Source: a virus. From it: 64,000 bases of DNA. Below the pieces are notes generated by a model. It saw nothing but the letters and a program-made list of their open reading frames with translations. It was not told the DNA's origin and did not search any database. Positions 17,137 to 50,648 of this stretch are shown piece after piece. Every line of letters starts with the position of its first letter. Position 1 is the stretch's first letter. The position numbers were made by a program, and so were the translations under genes. The DNA lies in the IMG/VR virus record IMGVR_UViG_3300045988_122718, positions 64,001 to 128,000 of that record; one strand, 5' to 3'.

Positions 17137-18288
17137 TTACTTAAGATTTTTTATAACAGATATAGATTCATTTTGTGTTTCTTGCAACAAATGAGAATAT
17201 ACTGTCATTGTAACGTCAATTTTTGCGTGTCCAACTATTTTCGAAATCATTGTTATCGGAACACCTTGGTCAATAAGCGTACTTACGAATGTGTGCCTCA
17301 ATGAGTGTGGCCCACACTGTTTTATGTTTGCTTGTTTTAATATACGCTGAAATACCTTATACGCATCAGCAGGGCGAACTATTGTATTATATCTTGAGCG
17401 TACAATGTACTGTTCTGGATCATATCCTTTTTCTTTTTTCAAATCGTTAAGAGCCTCTATTGCCATGTCTGATAAAAACACGGTTCTCCCTCTTCCTACC
17501 TTTGTAGTTGATTGATCAATAAGAATTTTGCTTCCATCATTTTTTGTTCGGTCTTTTACATATACTATGGTTCTTGATACATAGACTGTTCTTTTTTCAA
17601 AGTCAATATATTTCCACTTAAGTGCGAGCCCTTCGCCAAGTCTAAGCCCAGTATACATTAAGAAAACATAAAATGCACCATATTTAAATCTTCTTTCCCC
17701 GTTACTATATTTCATATAGCAGGCGTTTACCAACCTAGCTCTTTCCTCTTCTGAAAAGAATCTTTGCTCTTTTTCTTCAAATAGTTCTCGTTTTGGCATC
17801 ACTACATTGTCTATTGGGTTTTTGTTTACTTTTCCTCTGGCTATAGCATAATCAAAAATTTGCCCCAATGTTCCATAAGCTTTGCGAATTGTTGAACGTG
17901 AATACCCGTCTGTTTTAAACTTATTTATTATCATAGTTTGAATTAAACTATCATCTATTTGCTGCAATGCCAAATCCCCTAACTGTTTAATTAAAAAATT
18001 TTCTGTTATGTCTGCAAGTCTATCATATGAGGCTGGTTTAATAGATGGCTGTTTAATATTTTTAAGCCATGAACGAGCAAAATCCTTAAATAAAACGTCT
18101 TTCTCTCCAACAATACCTGTTGACAATAACGCTTCAAATTCTTGCTTTTTATTTAAGCACTCTTGCTTGGTGCCATAGAAATATTTCCTGCCAAATCCCT
18201 TGTATGATACAGATAACTTCCATTTACCATTATCGCGCTGCGTCCAAGATCCTTCTCCGTTCATTCTCTTCTTTGCCACAATAACCAC
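17137..18288 (-). CDS. int: tyrosine site-specific integrase
   Basis: C-terminal catalytic region with ...GLRLGE...HSLRHTFVSTLIDQGV...GHAKIDVTMTVYSHL (R..H-x-x-R..Y). The likely true start is GTG at 18279, behind AAAGGAG. Confidence 0.9.
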   Translation of the reverse strand: MVIVAKKRMNGEGSWTQRDNGKWKLSVSYKGFGRKYFYGTKQECLNKKQEFEALLSTGIVGEKDVLFKDFARSWLKNIKQPSIKPASYDRLADITENFLIKQLGDLALQQIDDSLIQTMIINKFKTDGYSRSTIRKAYGTLGQIFDYAIARGKVNKNPIDNVVMPKRELFEEKEQRFFSEEERARLVNACYMKYSNGERRFKYGAFYVFLMYTGLRLGEGLALKWKYIDFEKRTVYVSRTIVYVKDRTKNDGSKILIDQSTTKVGRGRTVFLSDMAIEALNDLKKEKGYDPEQYIVRSRYNTIVRPADAYKVFQRILKQANIKQCGPHSLRHTFVSTLIDQGVPITMISKIVGHAKIDVTMTVYSHLLQETQNESISVIKNLK

Positions 18289-19819: not shown

Positions 19820-22800
19820 TTAACCACAGTGACTATACCCACATGATTTACAAATGTCACATCCCCCTTCGTGCTCAAGTAGCTCCCCACACTCTGGGCA
19901 TCTTCCGTTCTTTTCAGTAACAATCTTAATATCATTAGGAACTCTAGATTCATCATATTCTTCCTCGGAATCTGTGTCATAAGTATCTCCGATTTCATCT
20001 TGCATTTCCTTCCACATGTCTACAAGCGCATTTCCAATAGCCATAGGACAACAAGAACCCTTTGATGTGTCATGCTTTGTGGCTGTTCTTGCTGCGTAGC
20101 TTGGGCATACACCGGTTGAATCTAGCTGGTCTTTAATTGTAGCAATATCAACACCTGCTCTACATAGAAGAGATACTGTACGACTTAAACCAGTCATAAA
20201 ATTAGCACAACCACCAGTGCTACCTTTGTTGAAATATACTTCCTGCAAGTCACCATTGTATGGATCAAAGAAAGCCAATACATGAAGACTTCCACATCCA
20301 GTAGTCAGTTTGCGCTTTTTACCAATAAGGTCATCGGAACAGTTCATGATTGCACCACGTGGAATAGATTCTTCCGTCTGAATTTCTTCTTTGTTTTTAT
20401 CTTCTACAATCAATACACCTTCACGCTTACAGCCAGAACGATAAATTGTAATACCCTTTAGGCCATTCTTCCAAGCTGACATATAGATATTTTTAACATC
20501 ATCAATCGTAGCCTCATTTGGTAGATTTACTGTAGAGCTAATGCTCGCGTCAATCCCCTTTTGCCAAGCAGCCTGCATAGCTACACGTTTGTTATAGTCA
20601 ATTTCGGAAGAATCAACAAACCAATCAGGGAATTTATCGTTGACAGTAAGTCCGTGTTCGTCTGCATACTTTTGATAAATAGGGGTAAGCACATCATAGT
20701 ACTGAGTTGTTTCGTGCAGAGATTCTGTCTTACGCTTGTAGCTCTTTGCGAAAATAGGCTCAATACCACCACTGATTCCAAGCATTGTTGAGATGGTTCC
20801 GGTTGGAGCAATGGTTAGAAGTTGACTATTGCGTAGACCATAATTATCAACCATGTTTCTTGTTATGGTGTCTGCATTTGCTCTAAAGAATGGGGTATCA
20901 ATTGTTGCATTTGTATATTTAGGATATATACCCTTTTCACAAGCTAAGTGAGAAGAAACATAAATTGCGTGGTTAGCCATTGCCATAGAAATATCACGGC
21001 AGTGTTCGATTGCCTCGTCACTATCATAACGTAAATGCATCTTGATGAGCATATCAGCAACGCCGCATACCCCTAGTCCAACTTGACGCCAATCTCTTAC
21101 GCTATCTCTTTGCTCTTGTAGAGGATGAAGAGGAAGACCTTCGTCAAGAACCTCGTTTAAGTATCTAATACCAATATCTACTGTATCATAGAAATCATCA
21201 TACATAAAATTGCCATAATCATCTACAAAGGCAGACAGATTAATGGAACCGAGTAGGCATGACCCACCAGCGGGAAGAGGTTCTTCTGCACAAGGATTGG
21301 TTCCAGCATATTCGAAGTCTGGATTATTACTTAACAGATTATATTCTTCAATATTATCCCAGAATAGAATTCCTGGCTCTGCCCAGTTCCAATTGTTCTC
21401 ACATAGCTTATCAAAAATATCTCTTGCTTTTGCAGTCTTTGTGATTGTTTCACCAGTTTCTGGACGAGTAAAAGACATTACCCAATCGGTATCATCTTCG
21501 ACCGCTTGCATAAAATCATCTGTTACACGAACAGATATATTAGCTTTAGTAACGCTATTTTCTTTGGTCTTGATGTCAATAAAGTCTAGTAGGTCTGGAT
21601 GATGACAATCAAGACTAATCATTAAAGCGCCTCTGCGGCCATTCTGACCGATTTCCTCGGTTGTCTGACTATAGCCCTGCATGAAACTTACGGCGCCACT
21701 AGTCTTTTCTGCTTGATTATGGACCTTTGCACCAGCAGGGGCAAGTTTAGAAATGTCAATTCCGCAGCCTCCACCATACGAATATGTTCTTGCTAGCTTC
21801 TTACGACTTTCAAAAATAGACTCAATGTTGTCTTCTGGAGGTGCAATTACATAGCAATTATGAACAATAACACCATTTACATTATATGTATGCGTGTCTT
21901 CTACAGATAAGTTGTATACTTTGCAGTGGCAATCTTCAGAGATGCTAATTGAACTTAGAGCCGCATACTCAAAATCGCCACGTACATCAAGGCTATTTCT
22001 TCCGTCACTATATTGTTTAGACAATAGTGGATTTAAAAATTTATTAGAAATAGATACCCCAACACGAAATTCATATGTATCGGCTTGACGCTCTACGGAA
22101 TGAATAGGAGATGCGTTAATGCCATTCATCCACATTGTATAATGTAGCCAATCAATTAATTTACGATTTTTTAGCACAATACGAAATGCACCGTGTGTGT
22201 CTAACGTACCATCTGCGTCACATAGTCCGACCATCATTGGAACACAACCAAGATATTCATCAGGAACAAATTTATCGTTGCATTTTTCTCCAAAATGGTT
22301 AATAAACCAAGATGCTACAATTTCACTTTCAAACCTTAAAGCAATAACATTCTGATTGGTTTCACGATAAGATGCATGAATACCAAAAACACTTTCACCA
22401 ATAGATTTACAACGTTCAAACGCATCACGCTCTGTGGTTGCGTTGAATACGATTTGTAGAATAGATGGATTTTTATAACCACGGCGTGCCGTTATACTAC
22501 CATCACCCAACCAACGACCAATAAAATATGCAAAATCATCATCAAATACCCACTCAGCACGTACAGAGTTACCTCTATGCTGATAGGTTGTAGTTCCACG
22601 GTCATTTACAAGCGTATAAATTTGAGCCATTCCGTCTTTTACTTCAACCTTGCTATTGTCTCTAGCCTTAAATCCATCAAGAGCGGATACAATCTTTGGC
22701 GTAAGCTTAATCATATGGCGTTGTGCCATCTTGATTTTATCTTGTGCTTTAATTTGCTCAGAACAAGCAAGTATACGGTCTGCTCGTTTCCAACCGTGGT

Positions 22801-23236
22801 TTGTCAAAAATTTATGATTTGGAGTACATTTGATTGGTTCCATAAAATTTATACTTTTAAGACAATAAATATCTCCAGTATATTCACGACACATAATGTC
22901 ATTTACACGATGAAACTGTTCATCATGAGACAGTACCATGTCTCCAATAGCAATATCTTCAATATTTTTAAATCCGTCAATCGTAAGCACTTTGGAACCA
23001 GCCATAAAACAATTTGAGTAAGTGACTCTAGTGTCCTTTACACCTCGGTTGCTAAGAATACGACCACCAGGAACAAACTTCTTATTGATAATTGCTTTCT
23101 TTGCTCTCTTATTACCGCCACTTACTCTGTCTAGCCATTCATCAAATGACTCTTCGCCCTTACGATATTTTCTCATCCAAATATCAATTCCAAGTTTATT
23201 GTCTTTCCCTAACCACTGTTCTACTGTCATAGGCAT
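19820..23236 (-). CDS. nrdJ: class II (adenosylcobalamin-dependent) ribonucleotide reductase, intein-containing precursor
   Basis: The extein reads ...TYSN|CYVIAPPEDNIES.... Large RNR core motifs are present (NPCAEEPLP..GSCLLGS). The C-terminal Cys-rich tail is CPECGELLEHEGGCDICKSCG. Length is 753 aa without the intein. Confidence 0.85.
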   Translation of the reverse strand: MPMTVEQWLGKDNKLGIDIWMRKYRKGEESFDEWLDRVSGGNKRAKKAIINKKFVPGGRILSNRGVKDTRVTYSNCFMAGSKVLTIDGFKNIEDIAIGDMVLSHDEQFHRVNDIMCREYTGDIYCLKSINFMEPIKCTPNHKFLTNHGWKRADRILACSEQIKAQDKIKMAQRHMIKLTPKIVSALDGFKARDNSKVEVKDGMAQIYTLVNDRGTTTYQHRGNSVRAEWVFDDDFAYFIGRWLGDGSITARRGYKNPSILQIVFNATTERDAFERCKSIGESVFGIHASYRETNQNVIALRFESEIVASWFINHFGEKCNDKFVPDEYLGCVPMMVGLCDADGTLDTHGAFRIVLKNRKLIDWLHYTMWMNGINASPIHSVERQADTYEFRVGVSISNKFLNPLLSKQYSDGRNSLDVRGDFEYAALSSISISEDCHCKVYNLSVEDTHTYNVNGVIVHNCYVIAPPEDNIESIFESRKKLARTYSYGGGCGIDISKLAPAGAKVHNQAEKTSGAVSFMQGYSQTTEEIGQNGRRGALMISLDCHHPDLLDFIDIKTKENSVTKANISVRVTDDFMQAVEDDTDWVMSFTRPETGETITKTAKARDIFDKLCENNWNWAEPGILFWDNIEEYNLLSNNPDFEYAGTNPCAEEPLPAGGSCLLGSINLSAFVDDYGNFMYDDFYDTVDIGIRYLNEVLDEGLPLHPLQEQRDSVRDWRQVGLGVCGVADMLIKMHLRYDSDEAIEHCRDISMAMANHAIYVSSHLACEKGIYPKYTNATIDTPFFRANADTITRNMVDNYGLRNSQLLTIAPTGTISTMLGISGGIEPIFAKSYKRKTESLHETTQYYDVLTPIYQKYADEHGLTVNDKFPDWFVDSSEIDYNKRVAMQAAWQKGIDASISSTVNLPNEATIDDVKNIYMSAWKNGLKGITIYRSGCKREGVLIVEDKNKEEIQTEESIPRGAIMNCSDDLIGKKRKLTTGCGSLHVLAFFDPYNGDLQEVYFNKGSTGGCANFMTGLSRTVSLLCRAGVDIATIKDQLDSTGVCPSYAARTATKHDTSKGSCCPMAIGNALVDMWKEMQDEIGDTYDTDSEEEYDESRVPNDIKIVTEKNGRCPECGELLEHEGGCDICKSCGYSHCG
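21857..23011 (-). mobile_element. intein (385 aa) with LAGLIDADG homing endonuclease domain
   Basis: It begins CFMAGSKVLTIDG (Cys1), ends ...GVIVHN, and is followed by extein Cys+1. The two LAGLIDADG motifs are FAYFIGRWLGDGS and MMVGLCDADGT. Confidence 0.9.
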
Positions 23237-39066: not shown

Positions 39067-39843
39067 TTATAGTTCATCGTCTTCTTCTGCAAGCTTCTTC
39101 TTAATAGCCTTAATTGCGGCTTGTACGTCTGGACGAGTAATATTTTCCTCCATCCAAATTACATAATCGTCACCAGAACGATATAGGTCGATTAACTTCT
39201 CGCCCTTATGCTTACCAAATGTCAGCACGTATTCCTCTGGCTTAGATTCTACTCTTGGAGCTTCAATGTTCTCGAAATCCATCATAATAGTTTTACGAGA
39301 TGCAAGGTAGTCTGCAAGATGTACTAGCTCTTGATATGTGTCTTCTGGTTTCGGCAAACATTCTCCGGTTTTTCTATCCACATTCCATTGGCCCATATGC
39401 GATTCAATACAATGAGCAATTAGTTCAATTTCATCGTGATTTAGATACTTGCCATCATAACTACGAATAACCGTTGCCATTTGTAGAGGGTGGTCGAATT
39501 TAGTATACTTACTTCTTTCATAATCTGATTGGGACCCACTCTTACGGCCATCATGAATCAGTCCTGCCACACGTAGCAAGTCTCTTTCTCTACTAGGAAT
39601 TATTTTGTTGTATTGTTCAAGTTCAAGAAAGAAATTTAGGAATCTTACAACTGCAATCTGATGACGCATCAATCCAAGTTCTCCAAGTGAATAGGCCGGA
39701 TGGTACTTTCCAGTAGACGATGCTCCAACATGCCAGATATATTCTGGAAGATTGTCTAGCAACACAATTGCAAAATCTTTAATATCATTATTTTCAAATG
39801 TATTTAGTACTGGTTCTACTATATTTAGTCTTTCAGGCGTCAT
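39067..39843 (-). CDS. HD-domain phosphohydrolase with C-terminal DUF3820/ExoX-C-like module
   Basis: H-x(n)-HDGRK motif. The C-terminus is VLTFGKHKGEKLIDLYRSGDDYVIWMEEN. Confidence 0.6.
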   Translation of the reverse strand: MTPERLNIVEPVLNTFENNDIKDFAIVLLDNLPEYIWHVGASSTGKYHPAYSLGELGLMRHQIAVVRFLNFFLELEQYNKIIPSRERDLLRVAGLIHDGRKSGSQSDYERSKYTKFDHPLQMATVIRSYDGKYLNHDEIELIAHCIESHMGQWNVDRKTGECLPKPEDTYQELVHLADYLASRKTIMMDFENIEAPRVESKPEEYVLTFGKHKGEKLIDLYRSGDDYVIWMEENITRPDVQAAIKAIKKKLAEEDDEL

Positions 39844-44364: not shown

Positions 44365-45120
44365 CTATATATCAAATTCTTTGTGTCTACCACAATCTCT
44401 TGATAACCACGTTATATTTCTTTTACCATTACCTTTGTTTGCTCCTCTATATGTAGGAGTTAATGAATGACAATTAGGGCATAACAATGTTAAATTTTCT
44501 TCTTTATTATTTGTTGCATCTCCATCAATATGTTCTATTTCAAGTGGCAAAGTTCCAGTATATGGATTAATTTCACTCCACCCACATTTTGCACATTTAT
44601 TTTCGTATTTATCAAAAATATATTTTTTAATAGACGAAGATAGGTCTATCCATTTATCACCTGTTAATCCATCCCATTCTCCATCTTTCCATTGTTTTAT
44701 TTTTTGTTTATATCTATATTCATTAAAACATTTTGCAGAACAATATTTATTTTTCTTAGGTATTTCTTTATTACAATTAATACAATAATGATGTCCTACT
44801 TTCTTTTTTCTATGTTGGTTGCTATATGTCACAGAGCATGAACGGGAACAAAACTCAATTCTTTTAAAATCACTATTTTTTTGATTATATTTTTGCGAGA
44901 TTTCTTTCCCACAATTTTTACAAAACTTAATATCTAATTCTTCTTTAATGTGCGGACATTTTTCAATCATACAATATTTTATTGTAGATAATTGCTTTTC
45001 AAATGTTTTATGACACCCATCACATTCTACAATATATATAGTATGATTGTCTTTTGTTCTTTTGTCAGATATCCCTATTATTGTATAACATCCATATTTT
45101 TCTCCTATGTGTTTATCCAT
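44365..45120 (-). CDS. HNH endonuclease (multi-Zn-ribbon N-terminus)
   Basis: The C-terminus LEIEHIDGDATNNKEENLTLLCPNCHS is an HNH core. It is embedded in the tRNA array. Confidence 0.8.
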   Translation of the reverse strand: MDKHIGEKYGCYTIIGISDKRTKDNHTIYIVECDGCHKTFEKQLSTIKYCMIEKCPHIKEELDIKFCKNCGKEISQKYNQKNSDFKRIEFCSRSCSVTYSNQHRKKKVGHHYCINCNKEIPKKNKYCSAKCFNEYRYKQKIKQWKDGEWDGLTGDKWIDLSSSIKKYIFDKYENKCAKCGWSEINPYTGTLPLEIEHIDGDATNNKEENLTLLCPNCHSLTPTYRGANKGNGKRNITWLSRDCGRHKEFDI

Positions 45121-45152: not shown

Positions 45153-45284
45153 TGGTGGGCCTGGAGGAACTCGAATCCTCGACCAATAGCTTAATGGTGG
45201 GAATGGCAGGTGCTGCCCCTACTTGCAAAAGCTTTTCTGAATACACCCCCAAGGCTACTGCTCTACCTACTGAGCTACAGACCC
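45153..45284 (-). tRNA. tRNA-Lys(UUU) interrupted by a 56-nt tRNA-like minihelix
   Basis: GGGTCTG-TA-GCTC..GAGC-A-GTAGC-CTT[56 nt]TTAA-GCTAT-TGGTC-GAGGA-TTCGAGT-TCCTC-CAGGCCC-A-CCA. The length is 76 nt after removal, and the body resembles bacterial tRNA-Lys. Confidence 0.8.
45195..45250 (-). ncRNA. nested tRNA-like minihelix (intron candidate) in tRNA-Lys
   Basis: GGGGGTG-(21 nt)-GTAGG-GGCAGCA-CCTGC-CATTCCC-A-CCA: a 7-bp acceptor-like helix (2 G-U), a 5-bp stem, a 7-nt GGCAGNA loop, a discriminator and CCA. Confidence 0.7.
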
Positions 45285-45287
45285 ATA

Positions 45288-45363
45288 TGGTCTGAGTGGT
45301 GAGTCCCGCCCTCACGGCCTCGTGGTCCCAGGCCACGCGCTCTGCTAACTGAGCTACACCCAG
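45288..45363 (-). tRNA. free-standing tRNA-like gene: Pro(UGG)-type anticodon loop with C33 and non-canonical T-loop GGCGGGA
   Basis: CTGGGTG-TA-GCTC-AGTTAGCA-GAGC-G-CGTGG-CCTGGGA-CCACG-AGGCC-GTGAG-GGCGGGA-CTCAC-CACTCAG-A-CCA. The D-loop lacks GG. Confidence 0.6.
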
Positions 45364-45368
45364 AAATA

Positions 45369-45445
45369 TGGCACCCCGTGTTGGACTCAAACCAACGACA
45401 CATGGCTTAGAAGGCCATTGCTCTGTTCAACTGAGCTAACGGGGC
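45369..45445 (-). tRNA. tRNA-Arg(UCU)
   Basis: GCCCCGT..ATGGC-CTTCTAA-GCCAT..GTTGG-TTTGAGT-CCAAC-ACGGGGT-G-CCA. Confidence 0.85.
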
Positions 45446-45450
45446 ATATA

Positions 45451-45539
45451 TGGCGCGGCGCTGAGGTGTCGATCCCCATTCCTTTCACAGAACCACTAGT
45501 TTTCAAGACTAGGTTGCAAGCCGTTGCAATTAACGCCGC
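45451..45539 (-). tRNA. tRNA-Ser(UGA), class II
   Basis: GCGGCGT..CTAGT-CTTGAAA-ACTAG, a long variable arm, TGGGG-ATCGACA-CCTCA-GCGCCGC-G-CCA. Confidence 0.8.
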
Positions 45540-46001: not shown

Positions 46002-46124
46002 TGGCAGGGGTAGCAGGGTTCGAACCTACGATGCGGGAGTCTGGTCAAGGTAGTTGGTACTGCCCCAACTAAATTCACTTGAATACCTTGAAAGTCCCGT
46101 GCCTTACCACTTGGCTATACCCCT
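46002..46124 (-). tRNA. tRNA-Gln(UUG) interrupted by a 49-nt tRNA-like minihelix
   Basis: AGGGGTA-TA-GCC-AAGTGGTAA-GGC-A-CGGGA-CTTT[49 nt]GAC-TCCCG-CATC-GTAGG-TTCGAAC-CCTGC-TACCCCT-G-CCA. The body resembles bacterial tRNA-Gln (GCCAAG.GGUAAGGCA, weak 1-72 pair, G73). Confidence 0.8.
46042..46090 (-). ncRNA. nested tRNA-like minihelix (intron candidate) in tRNA-Gln
   Basis: CAAGGTA-TTCAAGTGAATTTA-GTTGG-GGCAGTA-CCAAC-TACCTTG-A-CCA. Confidence 0.7.
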
Positions 46125-46920: not shown

Positions 46921-46943
46921 TCTGTGTGATTACCTTTTATGTG

Positions 46944-47012
46944 AGGTCTTAATTGGAATCGAACCAACACCTGCCCTACCATAGGGCCGATCTACCATTG
47001 AACTATAAGACC
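46944..47012 (-). tRNA. aberrant tRNA-like gene (anticodon arm GCCCT-ATGGT-AGGGC, 5-nt loop); identity undetermined
   Basis: The acceptor (GGTCTTA/TAAGACC), D-arm and T-arm (GTTGG-TTCGATT-CCAAT) are canonical. The anticodon loop is 2 nt short. Confidence 0.45.
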
Positions 47013-47566: not shown

Positions 47567-47719
47567 TGGTCCCCTACCGGTGGATTGAACACCGAACCTC
47601 CCGATTATTGGCCTCCTCAGTAAGTCCTGCCCTTACATCTCTAAATCCTGCTGTTTAGTAGTTCTACTATTAAACTATGAGGAGAAGTCGGGTGCTCTAG
47701 CCAGTTGAGCTAGCAGGGG
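47567..47719 (-). tRNA. tRNA-Ile(UAU) interrupted by a 76-nt tRNA-like element
   Basis: CCCCTGC-TA-GCTC..GAGC-A-CCCGA-CTT[76 nt]ATAA-TCGGG-AGGTT-CGGTG-TTCAATC-CACCG-GTAGGGG-A-CCA. The length is 77 nt after removal. Confidence 0.75.
47609..47684 (-). ncRNA. nested full-length tRNA-like element (intron candidate) in tRNA-Ile
   Basis: CTCCTCA-TA-GTT-TAATAGTAG-AAC-TA-CTAAA-CAGCAGGA-TTTAG-AGAT-GTAAG-GGCAGGA-CTTAC-TGAGGAG-G-CCA. It is cloverleaf-sized, with an 8-nt anticodon-like loop and a GGCAGGA T-loop. Confidence 0.65.
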
Positions 47720-48133: not shown

Positions 48134-48210
48134 TGGCGGGAGTAGAAGGACTTGAACCTACGACATCTTGCTTAACAGGCAAGCGCTCTAACCAACTGAG
48201 CTATACTCCC
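48134..48210 (-). tRNA. tRNA-Asn(GUU)
   Basis: GGGAGTA..CTTGC-CTGTTAA-GCAAG..GTAGG-TTCAAGT-CCTTC-TACTCCC-G-CCA. Confidence 0.85.
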
Positions 48211-48550: not shown

Positions 48551-48683
48551 TGGTGCGGGTAGCGAGACTCGAACTCGCACGGATATTTCACCGAGGGATT
48601 TTTGGTGGATATTGTAGGTACTGCCCCTACCAAAGCACTTGCTATACCCAAGTCCCTTATGTCTGCCATTCCATCATACCCGC
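48551..48683 (-). tRNA. tRNA-Leu(UAA), class II, interrupted by a 47-nt tRNA-like minihelix
   Basis: GCGGGTA..A-AGGGA-CTT[47 nt]AAAA-TCCCT-CGGTGAAATATCCGT-GCGAG-TTCGAGT-CTCGC-TACCCGC-A-CCA. The length is 86 nt after removal. AAGGGA.UUAAAAUCCCUCGG matches bacterial tRNA-Leu(UAA). Confidence 0.8.
48603..48649 (-). ncRNA. nested tRNA-like minihelix (intron candidate) in tRNA-Leu
   Basis: GGGTATA-GCAAGTGCTTTG-GTAGG-GGCAGTA-CCTAC-AATATCC-A-CCA. Confidence 0.7.
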
Positions 48684-48731: not shown

Positions 48732-50285
48732 TTAAGAGTTCTTCAATGCGGCTTCCACCGCATCATATCTATCACTCATAAGCGTCTCAACTAGACACTC
48801 ATAAGGATCGGGTTTACCACTCATAACCATCTTGCAAACATTAGTGGAGAATCCGCTAACAAGAGCAACACCAAGGTCATTCTCCTTTACATGAATAGTT
48901 CCAGTGCGAGAATTTACATTCCAGAAGACTAGTCTAGGCATCTTATACCCAGCATACTCGAAACGCTTTTTGATCACATTAAAAAGTCTTGCATTAGGTC
49001 TATTAATACCATATCTAGCGGAACCATCACATGTTGCACAAGAGTCAAACTCCATGTCTGAAATAATGAGTACATTCTTAGGCATATCCTCTTGCTTCAT
49101 ACGACCATTTACCGCAGTAGTAAGAATCAAATCAAACACCTTTTCAATGTTTGTATTCGAACACTCGTCATGACCATACGCAACACATAACTTATCTCTC
49201 AGAGAATCGCACTGACTAAAATCAACCAACTGAGGTCTGCTAGAGAAAGTAATATATTTATCTTTAAAGTCTCCAGAAGAATGTTCTGCAAAGTAAATTG
49301 CAAGTGCATTTGCAACTTCAAGTGCAGTAACACGGCTACTTTCACCAACGTTACAACACATAGAAGCAGAACCATCTGCAACTACAATGGTGTTTCCACA
49401 CTCATTTACTGTATCAGGCAAAGCCCTCCAAAGAGATTCAAGAGTTGCATCATACTTGTTGACATAATTATTCCATCCAATTGTGTTAGAATACTTATGT
49501 ACAATGTCGTGAGGGAACAAAGTTCTAGCATTAATCTTAGTTTCACCATTTTCAAGCTTACTTAGATACTCTCTGCGACGCTCCTTATCATTACGAAGGA
49601 AAGCTCCGTTATAAATGAGATTTGCACGAGAAGGAACCGTTTCGTACTTAATGTCTCCCCATTTCTTTGCAGACATCTTACTTTCTACAATGTCAATGTA
49701 AGAACGCAGAGAAGAAAGAATCTTACGATACTTACGCTCTGTCATTCCAAGATTCTTGCAAATGTATCTTGCATCCATCTTAGTTTTTGCAGAAGAAGCA
49801 TTCACAGAAGGAAGCCACTTTGCAAGAAGAGATACGGGCTTATTATCAGCCATATTTGCAATGTCATCGGTGAGCTGCTTTTTGATGATGTCAAGAATAA
49901 CACCATCTACATCTGTTCCAAACAGACACCATAGGTCATCATAACGACCATACTCACTCACTAGAGGAGCAAGATGCTTAACAATGTCAACGTCATCCTT
50001 TACCATATTCTTAAGAATCACTCTGAACAAATGTCTCTCACCAAGACCACCATGAACATCTCTGGCGAAGAACAGCCAACGTAGAGCCATCATTTTATCT
50101 TCAAAATAAGCCTTAGTAAACTTATTATAGATATTCTCCTCACTCATACCACGCATAGAAGAAACTGCAAAGTTTAGGTCAACCAGTTCCTTACCAGAGG
50201 TACGATACCCAAGAGCGCCATTCTCAGTTACTGAATAGTTGAAATCCTCGTTCAGAGTATTCTTTACTGCATTCATAAAAGACAT
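48732..50285 (-). CDS. TROVE/DUF2828-like + vWA domain protein (Ro60-related candidate)
   Basis: The N-terminus VTENGALGYRTSGKELVDLNF...RWLFFARDVHGGLGER resembles DUF2828/TROVE. The C-terminal half has the vWA MIDAS motif VVADGSASM (D-x-S-x-S). A GGAGG RBS precedes the ATG at 50285. The size is Ro60-like. Confidence 0.6.
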   Translation of the reverse strand: MSFMNAVKNTLNEDFNYSVTENGALGYRTSGKELVDLNFAVSSMRGMSEENIYNKFTKAYFEDKMMALRWLFFARDVHGGLGERHLFRVILKNMVKDDVDIVKHLAPLVSEYGRYDDLWCLFGTDVDGVILDIIKKQLTDDIANMADNKPVSLLAKWLPSVNASSAKTKMDARYICKNLGMTERKYRKILSSLRSYIDIVESKMSAKKWGDIKYETVPSRANLIYNGAFLRNDKERRREYLSKLENGETKINARTLFPHDIVHKYSNTIGWNNYVNKYDATLESLWRALPDTVNECGNTIVVADGSASMCCNVGESSRVTALEVANALAIYFAEHSSGDFKDKYITFSSRPQLVDFSQCDSLRDKLCVAYGHDECSNTNIEKVFDLILTTAVNGRMKQEDMPKNVLIISDMEFDSCATCDGSARYGINRPNARLFNVIKKRFEYAGYKMPRLVFWNVNSRTGTIHVKENDLGVALVSGFSTNVCKMVMSGKPDPYECLVETLMSDRYDAVEAALKNS

Positions 50286-50530
50286 TTTCTTTCCTCCATT
50301 TTTTTGATTTATTTCTAAATCCCAAGACACATTATTATGTACAATCTCCACATTAAAAATTTGCTGTTAGTGTCTTTGGAGTTTATTCAACGAGACGCCA
50401 AAATAAAACCATTAGTAAAAATATCATTTTCATCTTTTTAAATTACTGTAAGCGTCTCTATGTAAGGCAAGGCACCATCAATACAAATCCATATCATATT
50501 ATGTAAAGTTGCTGTTAGTGCCTTTTTAAA

Positions 50531-50648
50531 GTCTCCTGACAGGACTTGAACCTGCGACCTCTGGTTTAACAGACCAATTAGAAACTTGCTATTTAAGGCT
50601 TTTACAAGTCTCGTTATTAAGCGCTCTATCCGACTGAGCTACAGGAGA
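50531..50648 (-). tRNA. tRNA-Asn(GUU) copy with a 44-nt insertion between the D-arm and anticodon stem
   Basis: TCTCCTG-TA-GCTC-AGTCGGATA-GAGC-G-[44 nt]-TTGGT-CTGTTAA-ACCAG-AGGTC-GCAGG-TTCAAGT-CCTGT-CAGGAGA-C. No CCA is encoded. Confidence 0.55.

Follow-up and report, generated by a model that had tools for sequence, protein, structure and literature searches.

The nucleotides T54-ψ55-C56 and G18-G19 of the tRNA elbow are among the most conserved in biology, and RNase P, the ribosome, T-box riboswitches and modification enzymes all recognise them. A natural departure from them is found in Staphylococcus, where non-proteinogenic tRNA-Gly species used in cell-wall synthesis have an altered D-loop GG and T-ψ-C, occur as extra copies beside canonical isoacceptors and avoid EF-Tu. 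The gene described here lies at positions 45288 to 45363, on the minus strand, of a 64,000-nt stretch of viral DNA (positions 64,001 to 128,000 of IMG/VR record IMGVR_UViG_3300045988_122718), which will be called the window and which derives from a large phage. It appears to be a tRNA-Pro(UGG) gene under purifying selection with a non-canonical elbow. Like the staphylococcal tRNA-Gly, it is a natural tRNA in which the D-loop GG and the T-ψ-C have been replaced; unlike those extra copies, it had no canonical tRNA-Pro companion in the window or in the tRNA array of the related locus L047. Phage tRNAs have been proposed to evade host tRNases via loop mutations (PMC10264068). As in those tRNAs, identity is kept while highly conserved loop positions are changed (C33 and the elbow), but the mutations described there fall at the anticodon-loop sites of known nucleases, whereas the positions altered in the present gene are not known targets of any nuclease.

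Read from 45363 to 45288, the gene has the sequence CUGGGUG UA GCUC AGUUAGCA GAGC G CGUGG CCUGGGA CCACG AGGCC GUGAG GGCGGGA CUCAC CACUCAG A CCA, with the following parts:

45288 to 45363, minus strand: tRNA-Pro(UGG) gene with encoded CCA and non-canonical elbow (sequence reading, Rfam RF00005, covariation in 16 homologs)
45357 to 45363, minus strand: 5′ strand of the acceptor stem, CUGGGUG, C1 pairing with G72 (7 of 7 pairs kept in 16 of 16 homologs, 4 compensatory)
45343 to 45350, minus strand: D-loop AGUUAGCA, 8 nt, A18 G19 C20 A21, no GG doublet (sequence; G55 partner in 74 of 77 tRNAs)
45321 to 45337, minus strand: anticodon arm CGUGG-CCUGGGA-CCACG (sequence; 4 of 5 stem pairs covary)
45299 to 45315, minus strand: T arm GUGAG-GGCGGGA-CUCAC (three stem pairs covary; G55 and C56 invariant)
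45288 to 45298, minus strand: 3′ strand of the acceptor stem, CACUCAG, with A73 and CCA (sequence, homolog alignment)

All 21 stem pairs of the 7/4/5/5 geometry were formed, one of them as G4-U69, and the Rfam tRNA model RF00005 scored the gene at 43.8 bits against a gathering score of 29. ARAGORN made no call, either with default or with relaxed -ps90 settings. The preliminary description of this DNA had proposed a 76-nt cloverleaf with encoded CCA, the T-loop GGCGGGA and the anticodon loop CCUGGGA (UGG with C33), and the minus-strand reading agreed with it in each respect: the anticodon occupies 45328-45330, C33 is at 45331, G37 at 45327, and the T-loop (45304-45310) reads G54 G55 C56 G57 G58 G59 A60. 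Its statement that the D-loop lacked G18G19 was correct for the doublet, although one G stays, at position 19.

When viral and metagenome collections were searched for a pattern with a fixed D-arm, 16 distinct intact homologs were obtained, the window gene included. All four helices were completely paired in every one of them, with no broken pair in 336 helix cells, and 11 pairs showed changes on both sides. The covariation score was 0.486, compared with 0.157 ± 0.018 in shuffled alignments and at most 0.101 when the partners were slid. Bacterial proline identity elements comprise C1-G72, A73, G35, G36, G37, G15-C48 and G49 (PMC9976931), and this set was complete in the gene and in all 16 homologs, C1, G72, A73, G35, G36, G37, G15, C48 and G49 being invariant. 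Across different samples, more than 25 contigs carried a member of the family; one copy, in L229, was truncated. Among 50,697 phage records the closest annotated genes were the tRNA-Pro of Phass-1 (78%) and those of phiCbK and its relatives (76%); all the INPHARED matches listed, of 32 records, were annotated as tRNA-Pro.

The gene also occupies the place of a canonical tRNA-Pro. The close relatives L002 and L004-L008 had in the same slot, between an identical tRNA-Arg(UCU) and tRNA-Lys, a canonical tRNA-Pro(UGG) of the sequence CGGGGUG UA GCUC AGUUUGGUA GAGC G CUAGA UUUGGGA UCUAG AGGCC CAGGG UUCAAGC CCCUG CACUCCG A CCA. Both genes had the same D-stem, G26, variable loop AGGCC and six of seven acceptor pairs, and differed mainly in the two elbow loops (AGUUUGGUA and UUCAAGC in the canonical sibling). 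Comparison with canonical tRNA-Pro(UGG) in general (L002:14875-14951 and the Phass-1 and phiCbK genes) revealed the same cloverleaf geometry, C1-G72, A73, UGG with G37, G15-C48, variable loop AGGCC, D-stem GCUC/GAGC, encoded CCA and array position. The canonical genes, however, have a 9-nt D-loop with G18G19 and the T-loop UUCRANY, whereas the remodelled gene has an 8-nt D-loop with A18, the T-loop GGCGGGA without T54, ψ55 or A58 sites and, in the window lineage, C33.

No second tRNA with proline identity was found in the 64-kb window. Nor did ARAGORN call a tRNA-Pro among the 23 tRNAs of the L047 array or in those array parts of L233, L238 and L241 that were retrieved, so the remodelled gene is the sole proline tRNA identified at these loci. 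A 70-nt gene that ARAGORN labelled tRNA-Pro(tgg), at 46943-47012 on the minus strand, was rejected as a proline tRNA: it has G1-C72, U73 and the loop UAUGGUA (A33, U37), and because of this non-proline identity and its coexistence with the canonical tRNA-Pro in L002 it must be something else. It was conserved in L001 and L002. Proline codons of the phage were CCA (201), CCU (150), CCG (33) and CCC (21), a usage that suits a UGG anticodon.

The conserved elbow set consists of G18, G19, T54, ψ55, C56 and A58, of which the gene retains G19 and C56 alone, the other positions being A18, G54, G55 and G58. Such an elbow appears to have been rebuilt, not lost. The exact D-arm UAGCUCAGUUAGCAGAGC was found in 79 viral contigs and in 98 stretches from genome collections, the latter including Candidate Phyla Radiation (CPR), DPANN, Elusimicrobia, Clostridia, Omnitrophota and Planctomycetes. 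Distinct intact class-I tRNAs having the D-loop AGUUAGCA numbered 77, and 74 of them had G55, mostly in T-loops of the form UGCRANU; other G55 tRNAs seen at these loci had D-loops of a different sequence that still presented A-G-Y or A-G-A instead of G-G. The pattern reads as a tertiary covariation from G18/U55 to A18/G55 with retention of G19-C56. The earlier view that this D-loop cannot dock was therefore inaccurate, since both partners of the G19/C56 contact persist and the change to A18 goes together with G55 across about 75 tRNAs, housekeeping cellular ones among them. Genes for tRNA-Ile(GAU) with the A18/G55 elbow were located in the 16S-23S spacers of one Planctomycetia and one Omnitrophota genome. 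Since these rRNA-operon genes carry it, A18/G55 should be compatible with normal translation, and it appears to be a widespread natural alternative.

Cellular tRNAs combining the D-loop AGUUAGCA with the T-loop UGCRANU were observed at L147 (3507-3579), at L173 (1532-1604) and generally at loci L124-L221, in metagenome-assembled genomes of Planctomycetia, Omnitrophota, Elusimicrobia, CPR, DPANN and Clostridia; some of them were the rRNA-operon tRNA-Ile. The cellular A18/G55 class comprised tRNA-Ile of Planctomycetia and Omnitrophota, tRNA-Ala of Elusimicrobia, and tRNA-Thr and tRNA-Phe of CPR, DPANN and Clostridia. Its members have an identical D-arm and G55-C56 in the T-loop, so that A18 G19 Y20 and G55 C56 are found in the phage gene as well, but they keep U54 and A58 (UGCRA), whereas the phage gene has G54, G58 and A60.

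This addition of G54, G58 and A60 was seen in 9 of the 77 tRNAs with the AGUUAGCA D-loop. It is rarer than A18/G55 alone and appears to be a mostly phage-borne module, which also forms the elbow of tRNA-like elements nested in neighbouring genes (see below). In L045, the T-loop GGCRGNA was present in tRNA-Val(UAC), Phe(GAA) and Ile(GAU), anticodons that ARAGORN did not otherwise find at this locus. A second, unrelated tRNA-Pro(UGG) with a remodelled elbow was found in L003, just upstream of an insert-bearing tRNA-Lys. The G54/G58-type elbow further occurred in tRNA-Glu, Ile, Thr, Met, His and Pro-CGG, and a tRNA-Gln had GGCGGAU. In a sample chosen independently of the elbow, through a protein gene (the window and 44 relatives, 91 distinct class-I cloverleaves), 71 tRNAs were canonical, about 5 lacked U55 and 3 had GGC.G. 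The preliminary description had held that a common occurrence of the same T-loop in database phage tRNA-Pro genes would speak against it. This was looked for and not found, because GGC.G was seen in only these 3 of 91 and the GGCGGGA arm occurred in no deposited phage genome. No description of a GGCGGGA T-loop or of A18/G55 covariation was found in the literature, a weak absence, as coverage of the literature was incomplete.

Two other elbow types were observed. The tRNA-Pro(UGG) of Phass-1 (OQ749652.1; L243, 299-371) has the D-loop AGCUGAUA and the T-loop UUUGAGU, which suggests that A19-U56 has replaced G19-C56. In L242 (4441-4516), a tRNA-Lys(UUU) that ARAGORN did not call, directly after the remodelled tRNA-Pro, has the D-loop AAUAGCA and the T-loop AGCAUAA.

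Several observations weigh against a functional elongator tRNA. T54, ψ55 and A58 are all substituted, and the near-universal U33 is replaced by C33 in the window lineage, although the anticodon loop has the usual 7 nt. EF-P reads a 9-nt D-loop motif, closed by a stable D-stem, on tRNA-Pro (PMC4890201, PMC5728406); the loop of the gene has 8 nt and lacks this motif, and hence also U17a, whereas that of the canonical sibling in L002 has 9 nt. The search pattern fixed the D-arm, so that its invariance among the homologs is an artefact of ascertainment and was not taken as evidence. The window covers about 64 kb of a genome of roughly 160 kb, and a canonical tRNA-Pro could lie elsewhere. Finally, the minimum free energy fold was not the cloverleaf (z = -1.31): nearest-neighbour energies favoured pairing of G30-U34 with A44-C48 by 5.4 kcal/mol. 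The canonical sibling showed a similar gap (4.7 kcal/mol), the alternative helix showed no covariation and covariation favoured the cloverleaf; the energy fold was therefore set aside as evidence either way. As for position 33, the homologs had the conserved anticodon loop YYUGGGR, with U33 in 10 of 16 (L240, L045, L046, L048, L049 and others) and C33 in the window gene and five other distinct homologs, among them L227, L231, L237 and L230 (U32 C33 in the last). C33 is tolerated or selected and not an error, because L237 keeps it despite different acceptor, anticodon and T stems.

With these points taken into account, the gene is probably a functional phage-encoded elongator tRNA-Pro(UGG) with an alternative elbow, a reading in which we have good confidence and which is carried by the observed gene structure, homology, covariation, identity elements, distribution and synteny. 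The suggestion of an elbow-remodelled tRNA-Pro in the preliminary description was thus supported by positional orthology, the invariant identity set, compensatory evolution of the variable helices and the lack of any other proline tRNA in the window. The RNA would be transcribed within a polycistronic tRNA array, released at its 5′ end by RNase P and trimmed at its 3′ end down to the encoded CCA. Host prolyl-tRNA synthetase might charge it via the intact proline identity set, and it would decode CCA, CCU and CCG, dominant among the phage proline codons. The L-shape could be held by the outer G19-C56 pair, with A18/G55 in place of G18/ψ55 and G54-G58, plus A60, in place of T54-A58; the geometry of the two substitute pairs is a prediction. 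The G54/G58/A60 elbow would likely meet the needs of tRNA-end-processing enzymes without offering T54/ψ55 modification sites. Modification-independence or escape from host factors, and immunity to homing endonucleases, are the main candidate reasons for its presence.

The Pol III alpha subunit of the phage shared 49-55% identity with its counterparts in Clostridium phage c-st and C. difficile phage phiCD211, and relatives of the phage were contigs of about 150-170 kb, some from human gut metagenome assemblies; it is a gut Clostridia-type phage. Its minus-strand tRNA array, from 50648 to 44203, comprises about 20 genes and is enclosed by predicted promoters and a terminator:

50849-50821 and 50731-50703, minus strand: two perfect 12/12 matches to sigma-70-type promoters upstream of the array (consensus matches only)
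45369 to 45445, minus strand: tRNA-Arg(UCU), upstream neighbour, 5-nt spacer, marking the conserved Arg/Pro/Lys slot
45153 to 45284, minus strand: tRNA-Lys(UUU), downstream neighbour, 3-nt spacer, with a nested element (45195-45250) in its anticodon loop
44179 to 44200, minus strand: strong intrinsic-terminator-like hairpin with a U-run, immediately behind tRNA-Gly(UCC), with which the array ends

The tRNA-Pro had been described as lying downstream of the insert-bearing tRNA-Lys. In the direction of transcription it lies upstream, separated by the 3 nt UAU (45285-45287). Tight spacing is typical for co-transcribed tRNAs that are released by RNase P and 3′ trimming, and the 5-nt and 3-nt spacers would fit this usual layout. 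A megablast search of the whole array against the 50,697 phage records gave one unrelated 79-nt tRNA match and nothing more, and an exact-protein lookup of the neighbouring serine hydroxymethyltransferase gave no match. A tRNA-Ser(UGA) with the T-loop AUCGACA (45451-45539, minus strand) was detected only with the relaxed ARAGORN setting; neither the default setting nor Rfam at E<=1 reported it.

The anticodon loops of four other tRNAs of the array contain tRNA-like elements, inserted after position 34 or 35 of the carrier:

45195-45250, minus strand: element in tRNA-Lys(UUU), T-loop GGCAGCA
46042-46090, minus strand: element in tRNA-Gln(UUG), T-loop GGCAGUA
47609-47684, minus strand: element in tRNA-Ile(UAU), T-loop GGCAGGA
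48603-48649, minus strand: element in tRNA-Leu(UAA), T-loop GGCAGUA

Each element has a 7-bp acceptor stem with compensatory changes among relatives, N73-CCA, a GGCAGNA T arm and a D-like hairpin, the loop of which presents A-A-G-Y, or AAUAGUA or AAAAGCA in full-size forms; the 76-nt element has a full D-arm. The anticodon arm is absent in the 47-57-nt forms and has an aberrant 8-nt loop in the 76-nt form. The Rfam tRNA model gave no separate match to any of them. Perfect 5-bp stems around GGCRGNA numbered five in the window, compared with a mean of 0.185 and a maximum of 2 in 200 dinucleotide shuffles, and all five arms lay in tRNA-like contexts, followed by 7 nt, N and CCA. A relaxed scan for GGCRGNA with a 3-bp T-stem was too noisy and was dropped. 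The acceptor/T-arm stack and the elbow are the parts read by tRNA end-processing enzymes (elbow review PMC4810234). The nested elements therefore seem to retain these parts, and most have lost the anticodon arm. No tRNA-in-tRNA elements in phages were found in the literature, again a weak absence given its incomplete coverage.

That the tRNA-Pro and the nested elements have a T-loop pattern in common, as noted earlier, was borne out. Direct comparison showed that the elbow and acceptor module alone, and not sequence, is common to them: the 7-bp acceptor stem, N73-CCA, the 5-bp T-stem with GGCRGNA and an A-G-Y D-like loop. The nested elements, by contrast, sit within another tRNA and have an absent or aberrant anticodon arm, whereas the tRNA-Pro gene lies outside any anticodon loop, is free-standing and complete, with a decoding arm, and is proline-specific. 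The two did not co-occur consistently: L002 contained three nested elements and a canonical tRNA-Pro, and L034/L047 contained the identical remodelled tRNA-Pro and no nested element. A strict partnership was rejected because of this independent occurrence in relatives, for which reason the shared T-loop would reflect a module, or a pool of donor genes, on which both draw, and no obligate partnership. The suggestion that the tRNA-Pro might be a stand-alone member of the nested family was not supported either, since its anticodon arm covaries and is of the decoding type, and the gene occurs independently of the elements.

A set of RNA repair and joining genes was observed at 35284-39843 on the minus strand, with an AAA_33/KTI12-type kinase (35284-36195), a weak RlaP-like nucleotidyltransferase match (36386-37195), an RNA ligase (37473-38636; PF09414 and PHA02142 OB domain) and an HD phosphohydrolase (39067-39843). 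Such a set could re-join tRNA halves once nested elements have been cut out.

The remodelled gene was also found in varying surroundings. The identical 76-nt gene followed tRNA-Arg(UCU) in the window and in L230, and tRNA-Trp in L034 and in the five metagenome contigs L224, L228, L233, L235 and L242. The Pro-Lys pair occurred as canonical with canonical, as remodelled with insert-bearing and, in L242, as remodelled with remodelled. Free-standing homing-endonuclease genes adjoined remodelled or insert-bearing tRNA genes in three arrays:

44365-45120 of the window, minus strand: HNH gene with treble-clef zinc ribbons
14489-15424 of L003: GIY-YIG/NUMOD gene directly before the other remodelled tRNA-Pro
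2128-2643 of L045: GIY-YIG gene with NUMOD3 directly after the remodelled tRNA-Pro

Gene placement and pair versions fit cassette exchange inside tRNA arrays.

Among other explanations, the one that survives best concerns the reason for the elbow and leaves decoding intact: elbow and C33 together might shield the tRNA from a defence or toxin with which the host targets tRNAs, or free it from any need for host TrmA/TruB. The loop-mutation proposal for phage tRNAs (PMC10264068), the diversity of elbow types in these arrays (GGCRGNA, AGCAUAA, UGCRA and the A19-U56 of Phass-1), the persistence of C33 in diverged members such as L237 and the RNA-repair genes of the window all point this way. However, no clostridial nuclease that recognises tRNA-Pro at its T-loop or D-loop came to light in this analysis, and only a minority of array tRNAs are remodelled (about 5 of the 91 class-I tRNAs without U55, three of these GGC.G), so that we regard this explanation as unlikely, if worth keeping in mind.

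Selection at the DNA level is quite unlikely. Here the tRNA works, and GGCRGNA/AGY would spread by erasing the GG and GGTTCGA boxes targeted by homing endonucleases, as an immunity allele in endonuclease-plus-tRNA cassettes. The endonuclease genes beside remodelled tRNA-Pro in three contexts (HNH in the window, GIY-YIG in L045 and L003), the location of an identical gene behind Arg-UCU or Trp depending on the genome and the three versions of the Pro-Lys module are what such a process might leave behind. Yet none of these endonucleases has a known cleavage site, the open reading frame adjacent to the gene in L034 is no obvious endonuclease, and the A18/G55 elbow is also present in housekeeping cellular tRNAs with no endonuclease nearby.

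Tentatively, the GGCRGNA/A-G-Y elbow might instead serve gut Clostridia-type phages as a portable processing handle that needs no modification. The tRNA-Pro and the nested elements would then be two uses of one module, the elements descending from such tRNAs, and the handle would be read by RNase P and a phage factor, for example the RNA ligase/kinase set 6-10 kb away. We consider this rather doubtful. If true, such phages could cleave and religate the tRNAs that they encode, and these would be marked off from host tRNAs.

It is very unlikely that the gene encodes a tRNA-like decoy or protein partner acting outside translation, as the preliminary description had offered, for instance as a sink for a host nuclease directed at tRNAs or as a ligand of a phage factor specific for the GGCRGNA elbow. 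The rare T-loop in common with the four nested elements, C33, the missing T54/ψ55 and the missing 9-nt D-loop read by EF-P (PMC4890201) are features expected of such an RNA, on which the RNA ligase, PNK-like kinase and HD protein of the window could act. Against this, the UGG anticodon and the full proline identity set were invariant over 16 diverged homologs, most of them with U33; the gene fills the slot of a canonical tRNA-Pro, with no other proline tRNA in the window or the L047 array; the decoding arm is conserved; and the elbow occurs independently of the nested elements (L002; L034/L047) and in tRNAs of other identity (L045). A decaying pseudogene, which the missing ARAGORN call, the non-consensus loops and the truncated copy in L229 might suggest, can practically be dismissed in view of 11 compensatory pairs, 0 broken pairs in 336 helix cells and more than 25 contigs from different samples.

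If the gene is indeed an elongator tRNA-Pro, a natural tRNA family that replaces four elbow nucleotides while keeping identity and helices would reveal which parts of the elbow are truly required, the G19-C56 face being the part kept, and a highly conserved RNA motif would have a working natural alternative. The family might also serve as a scaffold for engineered or orthogonal tRNAs. Because ARAGORN misses remodelled genes, phage tRNA repertoires are under-called and a phage may seem to lack tRNA-Pro. The more unusual biology lies in the adjacent nested elements rather than in the tRNA-Pro itself, which could serve as a free-standing reference molecule for the recognition of the nested elements of the same phage.

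Another kind of insert was observed in the array. An Asn(GUU)-like tRNA (50531-50648, minus strand) is interrupted by about 45 nt that lie outside the anticodon loop, between its D arm and its anticodon arm; a second, uninterrupted tRNA-Asn is located at 48134-48210. The motif GACAC-NN-ACAGCAA-UUU, beside a complementary GUGUC arm, was found in the window at 50361-50374 and 50509-50522 (minus strand), and in L015 (8600-9910), L237 (1960-2230) and L241 (960-1140). In distant relatives it lay within many 45-70-nt tRNA inserts that are not tRNA-like, and in L237 and L241 the arms AUGUGUCU ... AGACACAU-ACAGCAA flanked the remodelled tRNA-Pro itself. The two copies in the window lie upstream of a DUF2828 gene, compared with 0.19 expected by chance. 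The motif may represent a second kind of tRNA intron, a joining signal for split tRNAs or a processing site.

The gene in question encodes a DUF2828/DUF7788 protein and is located inside the tRNA array (48732-50351, minus strand); its product was found with 59-94% identity in 44 related viral contigs, always beside tRNA genes. Elsewhere in the window, the gene of the large subunit of ribonucleotide reductase contains an intein (Hint and intein-splicing domains) and has a tyrosine integrase gene nearby, the two being assigned jointly to 19820-23236 and 17137-18288 (minus strand). The integrase gene suggests a temperate lifestyle.

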